The position numbers were made by a program, and so were the translations under genes. The notes under the pieces were generated by a model that did not search any database, was not told where the DNA came from, and was given only the letters and a program-made list of their open reading frames with translations. From positions 13,411 to 77,410 of the forward strand of contig JAGVXV010000010.1 of the NCBI GenBank assembly GCA_018303625.1: a stretch of 64,000 bases of DNA, written 5' to 3'. The number at the start of each line of letters is the position of its first letter. The first letter of the stretch is position 1. Origin of the DNA: Candidatus Woesearchaeota archaeon (GTDB taxonomy: Archaea > Nanobdellota > Nanobdellia > Woesearchaeales > GW2011-AR4). Below are positions 12,078-47,587 of the stretch, piece by piece.

Positions 12078-12171
12078 GGTGGCCGTAGTTTAATGGTAGA
12101 ATAAGCGGCTGTGGATTGCTTTGTTTGCAAACAGAGCCCGCTTGGAGTGGGTTCGATTCCCACCGGCTGCC
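12078..12171 (+). tRNA. tRNA-His (GTG) with about 22-nt intron in anticodon loop; G-1 encoded
   Basis: Acceptor GTGGCCG/CGGCTGC, an extra 5' G-1 opposite discriminator C73 (a His identity element), U8A9, D-arm GTTT/GAAT, and anticodon stem AGCGG/CCGCT with loop CTGTGG|intron|. The T-arm is GTGGG-TTCGATT-CCCAC. Confidence 0.7.
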
Positions 12172-12258
12172 CTTTTTTATATAAAATGGCGGGTTCGTTT
12201 CAGCTTTGGTGATTTTTATTTTTTTCCGCAAGCTTTTTAAATACCCCCATTATCCTTA

Positions 12259-41343: not shown

Positions 41344-43236
41344 TTAATTAACATCAACAACAAACTCGCGGCTTATTTCCTCAACGCCGTCGCTTACAGT
41401 AACCTTGATTTCCTTTTTGCCTTTTGACGCAAATGTCCTTTTGTGTATCGCAGTTGCATTGTGCTTGTCAAAAAGCCCGAAATCCCAGAGATAAGACAAA
41501 GCATCATTATCAAAATCCCTTGCCGCAACAAACAATGTTACCGGTTCGTTCACTTTAGCTGACAAATCCGTGCTGGAATTGACTATTTCAGGCGCTATAT
41601 TTTTATTGAAAACAGTAATGTTAAGCTCCTGCTCAGCACTATCCTGTCCATCGCTTGCAACAAACCTGACTTTTACGCTTTCTTTTTCTTTGCCTTTGAC
41701 AAAGGAAAAATCCGGCTTGAAAGTAAAAATGCTGCCTTCCAATTCAGCATTTTCCGGCAGATTTTCAGCAGAGAATCCTATTATATCATTGTCAGGATCT
41801 GTTGCCATTAATTCCATTCTAAGAGTTTTGTTTTCAGTTATTTCTGCATTTTTTAATGGCTCAAAGGCTGGAGCCCTGTTGACATTCTCAACACTGACAG
41901 TAACAAATTCCGAAGCAGTGTAAAACCCGTCAGTGCCCGTGACTTTTACGATATAAATGCCTGCATCATCAAAATTTGTCTTATAAGTATTTTTTGCCAT
42001 CCATCCTGAATATGCAAATGAAACCCTGTCGTTGTCAGGGTCGTTGTAGCGCGGCTCTATTTTAACTTCCTCATTTTCATCGATAGTGATTGGTGCAATA
42101 GGCTCCAAGGTAAAAGGCCTGTTTGCGTCCCTTACAGTTATTTTTACGTCTTTTTCCGCTTCATTTCCATTGCTTTCCGCCATAAACTTGATATTTACGC
42201 TTTTGCTTAGCAAATGAAACTTGTCGGCGATATAATCAACAAGATTTTCCTTTTTTACAAAATTGAAATCAGGCTTCCATCTGAAAGTATTTCCATCCAG
42301 TACAGCCCCATCCGGCATGTTCTGCGCAGAAAAGATTATGTCATCATTATCAGGGTCCTGAACATTCAGCTCTATGGCTGCTTCTTCATTTTCATTTATT
42401 GCAATATCCTTTAAGTCAACAAAAAAAGGAGGCCTGTCATTGTTGCTTACAGTCACTTTGACCTGCTTGCTTCCTGAAAATCCTTTTCCATCTGCTTTTA
42501 TCGTTACCTTATAGGTGCCTGCATCATCATAGCTCGTCTGCCATTTGTTGTTCTGCCCGATTGGCTCTGATATAGTGTAAATTAGGCCGTATTTTTTAAA
42601 ATCAGGAAGGTTTAAGCTTGCAATTTCTGTTTCCCGGACTGCAATATCCTGTATAGAATCCAGAACATTTTCCATGCTGACATCATTTACCTCTACAATC
42701 CATTCGTTGCTTACACTATGGAGTTTATCTGAGACAACAATCTTGACATTATGCGTTCCGGCATCTTCGTAATCAGTTAAGTAATTTATAGTCTTGTCAT
42801 TGCTCACCAAAACATCATCAAGAAACCATTCATAGGCTAGAGTGTCTTTATTCAGGTCAGAGGCTGAAACATCAAAGCTTATGCTTTCTCCCTCATTAAT
42901 TGCCACTTTGTTTTCTTTCGGGGCAAAGCTTTCAATTGCCGGCTTTTCCTCCTTTTTACTGACAACCAGCAAAACCTCCTGGGAACTGCTCAATTCTCCA
43001 TCGCTTACAGTAATTGTGACTTTATATTCGCCTGCATCACCATAAGTTGTCTGCCACTCGCCATTTTCATTTAAAGGCTCGCTGTATGAATAAACAAGAT
43101 TCTGCGCATCAGGGTCTGTGGCTTTCGGCTGCAGGCTTACCAGTCCGGTTTCATTATAGGCAAAGGTTGTTATGCCGGAAGAGATATTAGCAACTAATAA
43201 TAAAACTAGCAATAGCAAAATTATTTTTTCCCCCAT
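41344..43236 (-). CDS. Secreted protein with about 6 PKD-like Ig-fold repeats
   Basis: A signal peptide is followed by repeats of roughly 90 aa, each with 'Y..DAG.Y.V.V.V.D' PKD signatures (for example 'TTYGDAGEYKVTITVSDGELSS', 'TDYEDAGTHNVKIVVSDKLHS'). Confidence 0.6.
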   Translation of the reverse strand: MGEKIILLLLVLLLVANISSGITTFAYNETGLVSLQPKATDPDAQNLVYSYSEPLNENGEWQTTYGDAGEYKVTITVSDGELSSSQEVLLVVSKKEEKPAIESFAPKENKVAINEGESISFDVSASDLNKDTLAYEWFLDDVLVSNDKTINYLTDYEDAGTHNVKIVVSDKLHSVSNEWIVEVNDVSMENVLDSIQDIAVRETEIASLNLPDFKKYGLIYTISEPIGQNNKWQTSYDDAGTYKVTIKADGKGFSGSKQVKVTVSNNDRPPFFVDLKDIAINENEEAAIELNVQDPDNDDIIFSAQNMPDGAVLDGNTFRWKPDFNFVKKENLVDYIADKFHLLSKSVNIKFMAESNGNEAEKDVKITVRDANRPFTLEPIAPITIDENEEVKIEPRYNDPDNDRVSFAYSGWMAKNTYKTNFDDAGIYIVKVTGTDGFYTASEFVTVSVENVNRAPAFEPLKNAEITENKTLRMELMATDPDNDIIGFSAENLPENAELEGSIFTFKPDFSFVKGKEKESVKVRFVASDGQDSAEQELNITVFNKNIAPEIVNSSTDLSAKVNEPVTLFVAARDFDNDALSYLWDFGLFDKHNATAIHKRTFASKGKKEIKVTVSDGVEEISREFVVDVN

Positions 43237-43264
43237 TTTTTACCAAAAAGAAAATTAATTAAAA

Positions 43265-44278
43265 TTATTCCTGCACTATGTCTATTATCTGCGGAGGCCT
43301 GTTTACATTCTCTACTATGACGGCAACTTCCTGGCTTGCTTCATCAGTGCCGTCTGATGCCGTTACTTTTACAGTATACGTTCCTGAATCATCATAGGTT
43401 GTCTCCCAAACGCCGTCATTTCCTACAGGATCAGATATTGTAAATGCAATTTCATCTCCGTCCAAATCTGCCGCTTTAGGCCCTATGGTTACTGTTTCTG
43501 TCTCTTTAACTTTTATAGCTGGGATTTCCTCCAGTACCGGCTTCCTGTTTACATTATTTACAGTGACAGACCATAAGTTTTCTGTCGATAGCTTGCCATC
43601 TGAAACAGTGACTTTTACTGTGTGGCTTCCGGCATCATCATAAGTGATTTCATATTTGAAGTAATCGCTGCCTGAAACCTCACTGCCGTCCAGTTTCCAT
43701 TCATAGCTTATTTTATCCTTGTTTAAATCAACGGCTTTAACGTTAAATTCAATTGCTTTTGTTTCACTTGTGATTGCGGTCTTTTCATGAGGCATAAAGC
43801 TCTCGATTACAGGCGCTTCTTCCTTTTTATTTACAATTATCAAAACTTCTTTTGAGCTTGTCAGTTCGCCGTCTGAAACAGTCACAGTAACGGTATATTC
43901 GCCAGCATCGCCGTAAGTTGTCTTCCATTCGCCTTTTTCGTTTAACGGGCTGCTGAATGCAAACTCTAATTCATCCTTATCAGGGTCCTGGGCTTTAGGA
44001 GTTAAGCTTACAATGTCTGTTTCCTGCACTATAATAACAGTCGCTTCCCCTACTTCTTCCCTGACTTCCTTCACTTCCTCTTTTTCAGCTTCCTTTTCTA
44101 CAGGAGCCTCTTCTTTTATTAGTTCTCCTATGGTTATGTTTTCCTCAGGAATCTTGACTACCTCCCCAACAGGAGCCGGCGGCGCATATAGTGTATTGTA
44201 GACGTCGCAGGCTGACAAGAAAACAGCGAATATAACAAGAGTTGCAATGAGCGCTTTTAATTTCATAATACCCCTCAT
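43265..44278 (-). CDS. Secreted/lipobox-anchored protein with 3 PKD-like repeats (paralog of the upstream gene)
   Basis: A signal peptide ends 'FLSAC' (lipobox-like). The repeats 'TTYGDAGEYTVTVTVSDGELTS', 'ITYDDAGSHTVKVTVSDGKLST' and 'TTYDDSGTYTVKVTASDGTDEA' are closely related to the 41344-43236 repeats. Confidence 0.6.
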   Translation of the reverse strand: MRGIMKLKALIATLVIFAVFLSACDVYNTLYAPPAPVGEVVKIPEENITIGELIKEEAPVEKEAEKEEVKEVREEVGEATVIIVQETDIVSLTPKAQDPDKDELEFAFSSPLNEKGEWKTTYGDAGEYTVTVTVSDGELTSSKEVLIIVNKKEEAPVIESFMPHEKTAITSETKAIEFNVKAVDLNKDKISYEWKLDGSEVSGSDYFKYEITYDDAGSHTVKVTVSDGKLSTENLWSVTVNNVNRKPVLEEIPAIKVKETETVTIGPKAADLDGDEIAFTISDPVGNDGVWETTYDDSGTYTVKVTASDGTDEASQEVAVIVENVNRPPQIIDIVQE

Positions 44279-44362: not shown

Positions 44363-44490
44363 TGGGCCTGCCAGGATTTGAACCTGGGACCATTCTCGGC
44401 TTATTGGCTCTCGATGTCTAACAGCTGGTTATCAGTTTCGCCGCCTCTTCTGGAGACTCGAGCATTCTAACCAGACTGAACTACAGGCCC
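44363..44490 (-). tRNA. tRNA, 128 nt, with a roughly 36-nt anticodon-loop intron and extra nucleotides in the variable region; anticodon probably CTC (Glu) but uncertain
   Basis: Minus strand. Acceptor GGGCCTG/CAGGCCC with A73. An intact D-arm GTTC-AGTCTGGTTA-GAAT. Anticodon stem CTCGA/TCGAG enclosing 43 nt. T-arm CCAGG-TTCAAAT-CCTGG preceded by 22 nt. Confidence 0.55.
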
Positions 44491-44533: not shown

Positions 44534-44637
44534 CGCCCCTGACCAGACTCGAACTGGTGATCTTACGGTTACAGCGCAAAGCTAACAGCCGTACGCTCTA
44601 CCTATTGCTCCACTCATAGTGTCTAAGCTACAGGGGC
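44534..44637 (-). tRNA. tRNA-Asn (GTT) with two introns (D-loop about 20 nt; anticodon loop about 13 nt)
   Basis: Minus strand. Acceptor GCCCCTG/CAGGGGC with G73. D-stem GCTT/GAGC with an interrupted D-loop 'AG|intron|GGTA'. Anticodon stem TACGG/CCGTA with loop CTGTTA|intron|A. T-arm ACCAG-TTCGAGT-CTGGT. Confidence 0.6.
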
Positions 44638-44746: not shown

Positions 44747-45160
44747 TCAATTTATTTCAATAACTTTTACCTTGAAATTCAAGTCTTTTCCCGCCAATGG
44801 ATGATTTAAATCTATTAAGACGGCATCTTCCCTTACTTCCTTGATTACAGAAGGCATTCTTTCACCCTGGGGCCCTTTCAGGAGCAGATGGCCGCCAACT
44901 TGAACTTCCGGAGGAAGCTTGCTTCTTGGAACAGAAACAACAAGCCTTTCATCCCTTTCCCCGTAAGCGTCTTTTGAGCTTATCTTTATTGTTTTTTCCT
45001 CATTTAGATTCATTTCTTTTACTCCATTTTCAAAGCCCGGAATAACCTGGTTATTACCTATTGTGAATTCCAATGGCTCTCTCCCGTCAGAGCTGTCAAA
45101 TACAGTCCCGTCATTCAATGTTCCTGTGTAATGGACTTTTACTTTGTCTCCTAGGTTCAT
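44747..45160 (-). CDS. FKBP-type peptidyl-prolyl cis-trans isomerase (SlyD-like, with IF insertion)
   Basis: 'VKVHYTGTLNDGTVFDSS...EFTIGNNQVIPGFENGVKEM' is the FKBP core. The C-terminal insert-in-flap is typical of archaeal short FKBP. Confidence 0.85.
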   Translation of the reverse strand: MNLGDKVKVHYTGTLNDGTVFDSSDGREPLEFTIGNNQVIPGFENGVKEMNLNEEKTIKISSKDAYGERDERLVVSVPRSKLPPEVQVGGHLLLKGPQGERMPSVIKEVREDAVLIDLNHPLAGKDLNFKVKVIEIN

Positions 45161-45290
45161 TTTAGGGAGAAATTATGAAATGATATTTAAGGGTTGTGGG
45201 TTAAGGCTCTGAATTTTTATTCAGCTCTGCAAGAATTAATTATATAATTTAAAACTAAAATTTAAATAGTACCATGCTTAATACTTTATT

Positions 45291-45548
45291 ATGTACGAGA
45301 TTTATACTGCAAATAGCAGAACAGAAAAAAGGCTCAAAGATCATATAAAAGAAAGGCAGGATATTCTCAAAAAGCTTCAAAGATTAAAGCTTTCTCCAAG
45401 AACGGAAATAGGTGCGCATCCCCTGCATGGAAAGCTGAGCGGAAAATGGAGCTGCTGGCTTGGCTCCAATATCAGGATGATTTACAGCATTGATGACAAT
45501 AACAGGCAGATAATCGTAGAAGCAATAGGAACCCATCAGGTTTATTAA
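45291..45548 (+). CDS. YoeB/Txe-like (RelE/ParE superfamily) toxin
   Basis: 85 aa. 'GAHPLHGKLSGKWSCWLGSNIRMIYSIDDNNRQIIVEAIGTHQVY' matches the YoeB C-terminal catalytic region (LSGxWSRRI...RLVY...H.Y). Confidence 0.65.
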   Translation: MYEIYTANSRTEKRLKDHIKERQDILKKLQRLKLSPRTEIGAHPLHGKLSGKWSCWLGSNIRMIYSIDDNNRQIIVEAIGTHQVY

Positions 45549-45556
45549 ACTTTCAG

Positions 45557-45694
45557 CTTTTTTATTTTGCCCCGGGCAATGTTCTTTTCGCTCTCCAAAA
45601 TCTGTTTCATCATATCAGAATTTTGGAGTATCTCTATTGTCTCTTTCATGCCTTCATACTCTTTTTTTGATATGAGTATCATGTCTTGCTTCAT
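45557..45694 (-). pseudogene. YefM/Phd-like antitoxin fragment (C-terminal half only), convergent to the toxin; coordinates approximate (within a few nt)
   Basis: Minus-strand 45-aa ORF 'MKQDMILISKKEYEGMKETIEILQNSDMMKQILESEKNIARGKIKKLKV'. It aligns with the C-terminal half of YefM ('[39 protein letters not shown]'). An in-frame TAA lies just upstream, so the N-terminal DNA-binding half is absent. Confidence 0.45.
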
Positions 45695-45837
45695 AAGGAA
45701 ATCATAATATACCTGCCTTTATATAATTTTCGCATGTTTAATAGCCACGCCTTTTCCGAATTTGATTATTTGTGGGGTTAAAAATTTATGGGTTAGTATT
45801 TACCCCACTGGTGCGCTACGCAACACCAGTGGAAAGC

Positions 45838-46038
45838 TCAGCTTTTAATAATGAATGTATCACAACAATTTTTTTCAATAATACCTAATTTTTGGTTGCA
45901 GTCATTACAACAAATTATTTTAAGTTTAGCAGGTCCTCCTATGTTCATAGGTATGAAGTGATCATAAGTCCATTTATTATCATTAAAGTTTTTATCGCAA
46001 TATACGCAATAGTATTCCTTAATATTTTTTGAAACCAT
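45838..46038 (-). CDS. Small HNH-family endonuclease-like zinc-finger protein
   Basis: 'YCVYCDKNFNDNKWTYDHFIPMNIGG...CCNDCNQKLG' has the CxxC...DH...N...CxxC arrangement of HNH nucleases. About 66 aa from the internal ATG. Confidence 0.5.
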   Translation of the reverse strand: MVSKNIKEYYCVYCDKNFNDNKWTYDHFIPMNIGGPAKLKIICCNDCNQKLGIIEKNCCDTFIIKS

Positions 46039-46048
46039 ATTATTTTTC

Positions 46049-47587
46049 CTAAACCTCCACTTCCCTCTTAACCACAACCTTCCCAGTAATTGACCTCAAC
46101 ATATGCCCAGTTATCTCTAAATCATAGAATTTCTTTAGCTCTAATCTTCCCTTAACCCCAACAATTATCGGATATGTTCCAAACTGCCTGCAGAATGTTG
46201 TGTTGCCGTCATAGATTTCCGCATAACAATTGGTTAAAACTGTTCCGTTTGGAATTACTCTCTGCAGCATTGGCCAGTCTATTTTCTGCCTTATTTCATT
46301 GCGCCATTTCCAGTATAATTTTTTATTTTTTCTTAAAAACTTGTCCCTGCCTTTGTTATATAATGAAGTGCCTTCAAATATTGCAACCTGCCTTATGTTA
46401 ATCCTCCTTAGCATCAATCCTTCATCATAAATTCTTTTCAACCATTTCATGTTCTCTTCATGGGTTTTCTTTGTTTCATTGCGAAGCCCGAAAATTATAT
46501 TGACTCCGGGCAAAAACCTGGGCATTCCGTCAGGGCCTCTTTCAGCCCCGTATTTGTTCAGTATCTTAACCGCTTCATAAGCAATCTGAGGAGGAGTATT
46601 CAATGTATTTGCCTTCACAACCTCTAAATCAAAAGACTCAACTCCAAAAGCGGCAATATTTCCCGAAGTGCAGTACTTAACAATTGCTTTTGTTATTTCA
46701 AAATCACTTTTCTTGTCCATAACAACCTTGACAGGATTTACATTATCAATATGCAAAACCTTAATATCAGGGCATTTGCCATTTATTTCTTTCAGTAATT
46801 CTGCGGCATAAGGCAAAGTATAGAAGCAGGTCTGCTTTCCAAGCCTAAAATAACGAGCGCCAAGATTGTAAAACTCAATAACCTCCTGCAAAACATCCTC
46901 TTTATCGCGAAACTCAACTCTGTTTTTCAGAGGCTCTGTGCAAAAGCTGCACTTTCCTATGTCGCAGCCGTGCCCAGTCTCAATCTCTATCATGCGATGA
47001 TCAGGAATCTGCTTTATGATTGAAGCCCCTTTTATTGAATGATTCTTCACATCAGAATATTTGAAATTAAACATTGAATAATCAACTTTGTCAAAAGCGC
47101 CTAAATCAGCTTTTTCAAAAAACTTGCCGCCAAAAAGCTGCGTTCCGAAAACAGCAGGTCCTGTCAAAATTTTCTCGCATCTTAAATCCTTAATCATTGG
47201 AATTATCTCATTTAGGGTGCCAGGCACTGCAGAAAGATATTTTCCCGGAACATGAACACCAAGGACAACAATCAAGGTACCTGTTTCAGCAAGAATTTTC
47301 CCAATATTTTTATAATTAATTGTCAGGTTATAAGTTGTAATGTCTGTTTTCTGCGACGGCCTTATTGCTCTTATTTCTGAATTGTTTTTTTTCCACAACC
47401 TCAAATCATCAATAGTTAAATAACAAGCATCTTCATTCAGGTATCCTGCTATGTACCTAGGATACGTGCCAAGATAAGGCGGAACTCCAAGCCCGGCCGG
47501 CTCATCAGTATAGCAGTCAAGTATAGTATATCCCATAGCTTGGAGTAATGCTTTTTCATTTAAAAAGGTATTTGAAAAAGAAAACAT
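46049..47587 (-). CDS. Radical SAM domain protein with N-terminal extension and C-terminal TRAM-like region
   Basis: 512 aa. It has a radical SAM cluster 'IETGHGCDIGKCSFC' (Cx4Cx2C). The C-terminal 'GVKGRLELKKFYDLEITGHMLRSITGKVVVKREVEV' resembles a TRAM/OB domain. Confidence 0.65.
   Translation of the reverse strand: MFSFSNTFLNEKALLQAMGYTILDCYTDEPAGLGVPPYLGTYPRYIAGYLNEDACYLTIDDLRLWKKNNSEIRAIRPSQKTDITTYNLTINYKNIGKILAETGTLIVVLGVHVPGKYLSAVPGTLNEIIPMIKDLRCEKILTGPAVFGTQLFGGKFFEKADLGAFDKVDYSMFNFKYSDVKNHSIKGASIIKQIPDHRMIEIETGHGCDIGKCSFCTEPLKNRVEFRDKEDVLQEVIEFYNLGARYFRLGKQTCFYTLPYAAELLKEINGKCPDIKVLHIDNVNPVKVVMDKKSDFEITKAIVKYCTSGNIAAFGVESFDLEVVKANTLNTPPQIAYEAVKILNKYGAERGPDGMPRFLPGVNIIFGLRNETKKTHEENMKWLKRIYDEGLMLRRINIRQVAIFEGTSLYNKGRDKFLRKNKKLYWKWRNEIRQKIDWPMLQRVIPNGTVLTNCYAEIYDGNTTFCRQFGTYPIIVGVKGRLELKKFYDLEITGHMLRSITGKVVVKREVEV

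Follow-up and report, generated by a model that had tools for sequence, protein, structure and literature searches.

A review of toxin-antitoxin (TA) systems that belong to type II describes only two gene orders, canonical and reverse, both of which are bicistronic (PMC7167474). The described systems closest to the locus analyzed here are YefM-YoeB and Axe-Txe (E. coli, 2a6q; S. aureus, 6l8e and 7v5y), DinJ-YafQ and RelB-RelE, including the archaeal RelBE (P. horikoshii, 1wmi), PaaA2-ParE2 (paaR2-paaA2-parE2) and epsilon-zeta, and the "type IIb" relBE2-asRelE2 of M. tuberculosis (PMC9325379). PaaA2 is an antitoxin without a DNA-binding domain and sets a precedent for a minimal antitoxin (PMC8630535); a further precedent is the solved complex of RelE with RelBc, a C-terminal antitoxin peptide spanning K47-L79 (PDB 2kc8, which is among our Foldseek matches). 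In relBE2-asRelE2, a protein antitoxin is encoded upstream in the operon, and a non-coding transcript runs convergently opposite the RelE/YoeB-family toxin gene.

The gene pair studied here lies in a 64,000-nt stretch of DNA from a Candidatus Woesearchaeota archaeon (the whole stretch analyzed, hereafter the window), which also encodes archaeal RNase P RNA and SRP RNA; identical proteins are annotated in Candidatus Woesearchaeota assemblies. One gene, defined by its ORF and by family models, encodes an 85-aa RelE/StbE-superfamily toxin (45291-45548, plus strand), and the other encodes a minimal 49-aa antitoxin homologous to the C-terminal β3-α3-α4 toxin-binding half of Phd/YefM (45545-45694, minus strand). 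The two genes are convergent and meet tail to tail. A preliminary description had already recognized the convergence, but it placed the partner immediately 3' of the toxin gene and gave its length as 45 aa; the coding sequences in fact overlap by 4 nt (TTAA, 45545-45548), which on the plus strand belong to the toxin's Tyr85 codon and stop codon TAA and on the minus strand to the antitoxin's stop codon TAA. As that description had stated, the toxin has no antitoxin gene upstream. The 130-nt stretch 5' of the toxin ORF holds no antitoxin-like ORF, a six-frame search with the YefM profile found no intact antitoxin upstream after frame correction, and the mini-antitoxin family profile has a single match in the whole window, the site at 45554-45691 on the minus strand that is also the only one matched by the full-length YefM profile.

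Assignment of the toxin to a family depends on which models it passes. It scores 33.9 bits against TIGR02385 RelE/StbE (cut-off 27.9), falls just short of its best Pfam match, YafQ_toxin (29.6 against a cut-off of 30), and lies under the cut-offs of Pfam YoeB_toxin (21.7 against 27) and of the Txe/YoeB equivalog model (21.1 against 51.8). Because only TIGR02385 is passed and the narrower models fail, we regard the toxin as a RelE superfamily member and not as a YoeB or YafQ equivalog. Its homologues number 340, nearly all of exactly 85 aa. An AlphaFold model built with 35 homologues (pLDDT 91.5) has the RelE fold, with strands at residues 3-6, 52-56, 61-68 and 73-81 and helices at 9-21 and 23-34. 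The best Foldseek match of this model is YoeB (6l8e_E; TM 0.75, rmsd 2.3 Å), and YoeB proteins are followed in order by YafQ, RelE and archaeal RelE. No other kind of protein than YoeB, YafQ or RelE-type toxins occurs among the top 30 matches (E≤1e-3), which reach TM values of 0.77 and take in the H. pylori HP0892/HP0894 group; the YefM-YoeB and Axe-Txe toxins are the closest in fold, at TM 0.72-0.77. The preliminary label "YoeB-like" is thus a fair one for the fold as modeled.

Among the 35 homologues, His43, Arg62 and His82 of the toxin are invariant, and Tyr85 is at least 90% conserved. We take the catalytic set of YoeB to be E46/R65/H83/Y84 and that of YafQ to be H50/H63/D67/H87/F91. In the alignment, toxin His43 corresponds to YoeB Glu46 and YafQ His50, Arg62 to YoeB Arg65, His82 to YoeB His83 and YafQ His87, and the C-terminal Tyr to YoeB Tyr84. 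The window toxin thus differs from YoeB in carrying a His in place of the catalytic Glu46, and its residue set is a hybrid of the YoeB and YafQ types; its "AHPLHG" motif likewise resembles "DHPLQG" of YafQ. The toxin looks catalytically intact and is a putative ribosome-dependent mRNA endonuclease. Databases name such toxins RelE/StbE, and the 49-aa genes are mostly called "hypothetical," with some PHD/YefM annotations at JGI.

The claim that the opposite-strand ORF represents only the toxin-binding half of YefM was correct, since profile and reverse searches alike match the C-terminal half alone. Against Pfam PhdYeFM_antitox, the 49-aa protein aligns with positions 36-72 of 74 only (E = 2.5e-4), at 21.2 bits, below the gathering cut-off of 29.8. 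In the PDB, each of the ten best matches of the family profile is a Phd/YefM antitoxin that aligns through its C-terminal half alone, and the PDB matches include Rv2865, the antitoxin of M. tuberculosis relBE2. When the same profile was run against 1.84 billion proteins, it matched residues 31-80 of Phd/YefM proteins of 82-86 aa (E = 1e-8 to 1e-5), which are bona fide full-length family members (57-65 bits in Pfam). Conversely, when an HMM of full-length YefM is run against the locus, the minus strand gives a match at E = 6e-16 that covers model positions 34-79 only; the model's N-terminal half (positions 1-33) has no match in any frame of 45001-46100, even at E≤100, and a predicted TATA box sits where the N-terminal codons of the antitoxin would have been. 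The window partner is therefore a homologue of the part of YefM in contact with YoeB and of the neutralizing segment of Phd/YefM in general, but compared with YefM it lacks the whole N-terminal half, that is, the β1-α1-α2-β2 dimerization and DNA-binding core of the complete domain.

This short protein is conserved as such. Its 241 close homologues are nearly all 48-49 aa long (family range 48-52 aa), the longer calls among them reflecting unconserved choices of upstream start codons, and the family alignment has 16 invariant columns. Entropy at the three codon positions of the 49-aa gene is 0.68/0.38/1.18 across 23 orthologues, and the toxin gene shows the same pattern, a coding signature that marks purifying selection on a protein. 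The AlphaFold model of the antitoxin (48 residues, without Met1; pLDDT 87) comprises an extended N-terminal segment, helices at 9-23 and 25-39, and a Lys-rich tail, and a fold search with it returned nothing informative. The strand-helix-helix order resembles ribbon-helix-helix (RHH) topology, and we considered a cryptic RHH domain; this was rejected, as the protein has no RHH match at E≤1 and no conserved operator. Taken on its sequence record, the 49-aa antitoxin is a derived minimal form and not a broken gene, and "truncated" applies to it only in an evolutionary sense. PaaA2-ParE2 and epsilon-zeta likewise use a small, neutralize-only antitoxin that lacks a DNA-binding domain (PMC8630535), but their genes form co-directional operons that include a regulator gene apart from toxin and antitoxin, and no such gene is found among the window neighbors of the pair; their toxins, ParE and zeta, also belong to classes other than the mRNases. 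The mini-antitoxin profile also retrieved a second group of short proteins (P0260, P0269 and P0286) with the motif HK.(N/K/R)WVTIS.DEYESMKSTIEVLSDP, whose called N-terminal extensions look non-coding or hydrophobic. More families of minimal YefM-type antitoxins may exist outside this clade.

Each gene of the pair is preceded by its own predicted archaeal TATA box. The box of the toxin gene, TTTAAATA (45261-45268, plus strand), is a consensus match that starts 30 nt 5' of the ATG, and that of the antitoxin gene, ATTATATA on the minus strand (45720-45727), starts 33 nt 5' of its ATG and is adjoined upstream by a purine-rich, BRE-like GCGAAA read from the sequence. The placement recurs in related loci (see below). 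Of 73 toxin genes, 30 have a TTTAWATA-like box that begins at −30/−29 relative to the ATG and 37 have one that begins between −40 and −24; of 75 antitoxin genes, 56 have a similar box with its start at −33 to −28. These promoter calls are consensus matches, with a background of 6% for a 17-nt span in both cases. In archaea, the center of the TATA box lies some 26-27 nt before the site where transcription starts. Given the TATA placement, we infer that transcription of each gene starts at its ATG or no more than about 3 nt away and that the mRNAs are leaderless, and a TATA box of its own some 30 nt before each ATG would make the two genes two leaderless transcription units. The window pair thus differs from the yefM-yoeB operon in being convergent with separate promoters. 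Like relBE2-asRelE2, it would have convergent transcription opposite a RelE/YoeB-family toxin gene, but here the convergent transcript would encode the antitoxin itself. From 10 nt past the toxin stop, the plus strand carries a T6 run, a T4 run and then, at 45567-45579, a small G+C hairpin (whole element, 45558-45579). This element, which falls within the final codons of the antitoxin gene, is likely the 3' end signal of the toxin transcript.

To place the locus among its relatives, we carried out a motif-based scan with one genome per species, which yielded 80 loci in Woese-, Pace-, Nano- and Aenigmatarchaeota. As the loci were retrieved through toxin motifs, the survey samples one toxin clade only, within which toxins are 47-87% identical to that of the window. 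The two genes lie side by side in all 80 species-level loci, as expected of co-inherited partners, and in 79 of them the partner ORF is directly downstream of the toxin on the opposite strand (loci L028 and L071 were HMM misses, settled by inspection). The exact 4-nt TAY-TAR overlap of stop codons is present in 56 of 78 convergent pairs. Homology of flanking genes divides 81 loci into 46 context groups, some of them common to 10-11 species; from the 46 flanking contexts it follows that the pair travels as a unit with its geometry kept. No copy was found in IMG/VR viral contigs. Several genomes carry more than one copy (L082 and L083, L023 and L051, L066 and L074). The only co-directional locus of the 80, L082 (2257-2693), has the canonical arrangement, with the antitoxin upstream and its stop codon 2 nt before the toxin ATG; L083 is a convergent copy in the same genome (Nanoarchaeota Old_saline.mb.30). 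In two other loci, L021 (2480-2755) and L087 (2483-2756), an intact convergent partner ORF stands beside a toxin frame broken into two pieces. When toxin-antitoxin pairs decay, the toxin is expected to break while the antitoxin stays intact.

The convergent partner occurs in three forms that have a C-terminal module in common (TIEILQ..MM.QI.ESEKNIK.GKIK) and differ in what precedes it, and the clades of the toxin tree agree with the form of the partner. Form A, to which the window belongs, is 48-52 aa long and has no N-terminal part (32 loci). Form B, of 75 aa, carries an N-terminal RHH_1 domain (21.2 bits against a cut-off of 20.5; 37 loci), and Form C, of 55-63 aa, has one extra N-terminal helix (8 loci). 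In Form B antitoxin promoters, the stretch from the TATA box to the ATG contains two near-palindromic TACTNAGTA 9-mers at a distance of 10-11 bp, as in the pair at about 3000-3030 of L047 (Form B loci run from L022 to L081). In 35 of these loci there are 53 matches to TACTNAGTA, all in the antitoxin promoter and none 5' of a toxin gene, and the tandem TACTNAGTA is likely an RHH operator that would control only the antitoxin gene. By its RHH domain followed by a C-terminal neutralizing tail, the 75-aa form resembles DinJ and RelB; it departs from DinJ-YafQ and RelB-RelE in the location of its operator, at the antitoxin promoter only and not 5' of the toxin. The window partner differs from these systems further, having no RHH domain at all in addition to the convergent layout. 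Form A has one TACTNAGTA match in 32 loci, which is chance level. With neither a domain match nor more than chance occurrence of TACTNAGTA, the window form has lost, or never had, the DNA-binding domain and its operator.

The surroundings of the pair in the window were described beforehand as tRNA-rich and HNH-containing. The former did not hold up: ARAGORN predicts no tRNA nearby, and Rfam detects one 128-nt tRNA, presumably intron-containing (44363-44490, minus strand; 46.5 bits), which ARAGORN missed, plus one tRNA-like match under the Rfam gathering score (44541-44613, minus strand; 23.1 bits); a link of the pair to tRNA genes was accordingly rejected. Elsewhere in the window, a tRNA-His (12079-12172) is also over-long, at 94 nt. 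The HNH ORF is real, a stand-alone HNH_5 endonuclease-like frame of 66-79 aa (45838-46077, minus strand; HNH_5, 36 bits) overlapping the 3' end of a 512-aa radical-SAM gene (46049-47587), but a link to the pair was likewise rejected, as its homologues occur only in strain-level copies of the window locus and not beside the pair in other species. Just 3' of the HNH stop codon, a 9-bp G+C-rich hairpin is followed by a T5 run (45805-45832, minus strand; z-score −2.4 on that strand), with a second stem at 45772-45808. This hairpin is probably the terminator of the radical-SAM/HNH unit and lies between that unit and the antitoxin promoter. The neighbors of the pair are an FKBP isomerase gene and the HNH and radical-SAM ORFs; just upstream of the tRNA and FKBP genes are the genes of two large proteins, of 630 and 337 aa, that are secreted or exposed at the surface and have PKD/Big-like domains in repeated copies (41344-44278, minus strand).

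Our reading of these data is that the locus is, with high probability, an intact and conserved toxin-antitoxin module, type II-like and of RelE/YoeB and Phd/YefM lineage, working and probably horizontally mobile, in a convergent and non-operonic layout. It departs from canonical type II systems in two respects: the window and 79 of the 80 surveyed loci have convergent genes with separate TATA boxes in place of a same-strand bicistronic operon, and the window form has neither a match to a DNA-binding domain nor a conserved operator. The broken toxins beside intact partners in L021 and L087 count in favor of a TA function; against it count the Pfam scores below the YoeB, YafQ and PhdYeFM cut-offs and the His at the position of the YoeB catalytic Glu46. 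In the mechanism we propose, a toxin with the RelE fold and the conserved His/Arg/His/Tyr set would cleave mRNA on the ribosome. The 49-aa partner, with its short N-terminal strand, two helices and Lys-rich tail, would wrap over the active-site face of the toxin, so that neutralization would be stoichiometric and effected by a minimal YefM-type binding peptide. The genes would be expressed as leaderless mRNAs, each under a TATA promoter of its own and in units that meet tail to tail, and the toxin:antitoxin ratio would be set by the two promoters and by protein turnover rather than by operon autoregulation. In sister clades with unchanged geometry, the 75-aa RHH antitoxin probably represses only its own promoter through the tandem TACTNAGTA.

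The preliminary description had proposed an inverted, degraded, rearranged or decaying module. On such a view, inversion of the antitoxin gene of a yefM-yoeB pair and loss of the 5' half of that gene would have produced an orphan toxin next to a non-functional fragment. Such a history would account for the match to only the C-terminal half of the YefM model, for the non-canonical orientation and for a weak inverted repeat (19 nt, 79%, 45542-45560 to 45833-45851), but it is refuted by conservation and we consider it extremely improbable. The 49-aa gene keeps its length and sequence in 241 homologues, has a coding substitution pattern and retains its own TATA box at a conserved distance, and the layout is alike in 79 of 80 species and across the 46 flanking contexts; moreover, the expected N-terminal remnant is undetected in any frame, even at E≤100. 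A recent inversion was also rejected: a search for inverted repeats flanking the antitoxin gene gave nothing meaningful, only weak repeats at chance level, and a local inversion is irrelevant because the layout is conserved. What the preliminary description had made its own test, the similarity of the minus-strand ORF to YefM, is borne out by the full-length HMM search, the Pfam match lying below the gathering cut-off.

Two further explanations accept the pair as functional and differ from ours in what it does or how it is controlled. In one, the antitoxin mRNA would read on into the toxin gene and play two parts, as template for the antitoxin and as an antisense RNA acting in cis to reduce expression of the toxin, and the geometry would be selected for this coupling. 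Given the 4-nt overlap of the coding sequences, the two transcripts must share sequence at their 3' ends, and on the antitoxin strand of the window the first 172 nt into the toxin gene are free of T5 runs, the toxin strand having its T6 run 10 nt past the stop; the geometry is conserved over about 50% protein divergence, and in M. tuberculosis relBE2 a convergent antisense RNA does regulate relE2 (PMC9325379). Synonymous-codon shuffles speak against selection for such coupling. Within toxin genes, the antitoxin strand is not depleted of T5 tracts (172 observed versus 145 expected). One or more signals that could stop the antitoxin transcript are present in 72 of 79 toxin genes, and although a run of T5 or longer lies within 40 nt past the toxin stop in 57 of 78 loci, T-runs there are not enriched (55 observed versus 59.6 expected). 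As the counts match or exceed the shuffle expectation, they support neither selected antisense read-through nor a selected terminator in the Lys-rich tail, and genome compaction alone could give the tight tail-to-tail overlap. We therefore hold this dual role of the antitoxin mRNA to be unlikely; if true, a single transcript would join type I-like and type II-like control and replace operon autoregulation across a DPANN clade. Even less likely, in our estimate, is a housekeeping role for the pair in DPANN archaea, as a domesticated RNase accompanied by a small regulator or chaperone, in place of growth-arresting addiction or defense. The wide distribution of the pair in DPANN lineages, the lack of an IMG/VR viral copy and the context groups common to 10-11 species are consistent with domestication, but the 46 contexts for 81 loci argue for mobility, and the multiple copies in some genomes, the two loci with a broken toxin and an intact partner, and the fact that the nearest solved relatives are all toxin-antitoxin proteins also point away from it.

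In the full-text literature searched, whose coverage takes in a minority of subscription-journal papers, we found no description of a convergent protein-protein TA module or of this DPANN family. The components are known; what sets the pair apart is the conserved non-operonic architecture together with the minimal antitoxin. A RelE/YoeB-type clade places toxin and antitoxin on opposite strands, under separate predicted leaderless promoters, in roughly 80 DPANN species, and within this clade the N-terminal module of the antitoxin is exchanged, being absent in one form, an RHH domain in another and a single additional helix in the third. TA detection rules that require same-strand pairs would call such toxins orphans and leave the 49-aa genes as hypothetical, and by those rules such modules would be under-counted in archaea. 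The family offers a natural series for gauging how autoregulation and the coupling of genes in an operon bear on toxin-antitoxin function, and its 49-aa member is predicted to be a natural minimal neutralizing peptide for a YoeB-like RNase.
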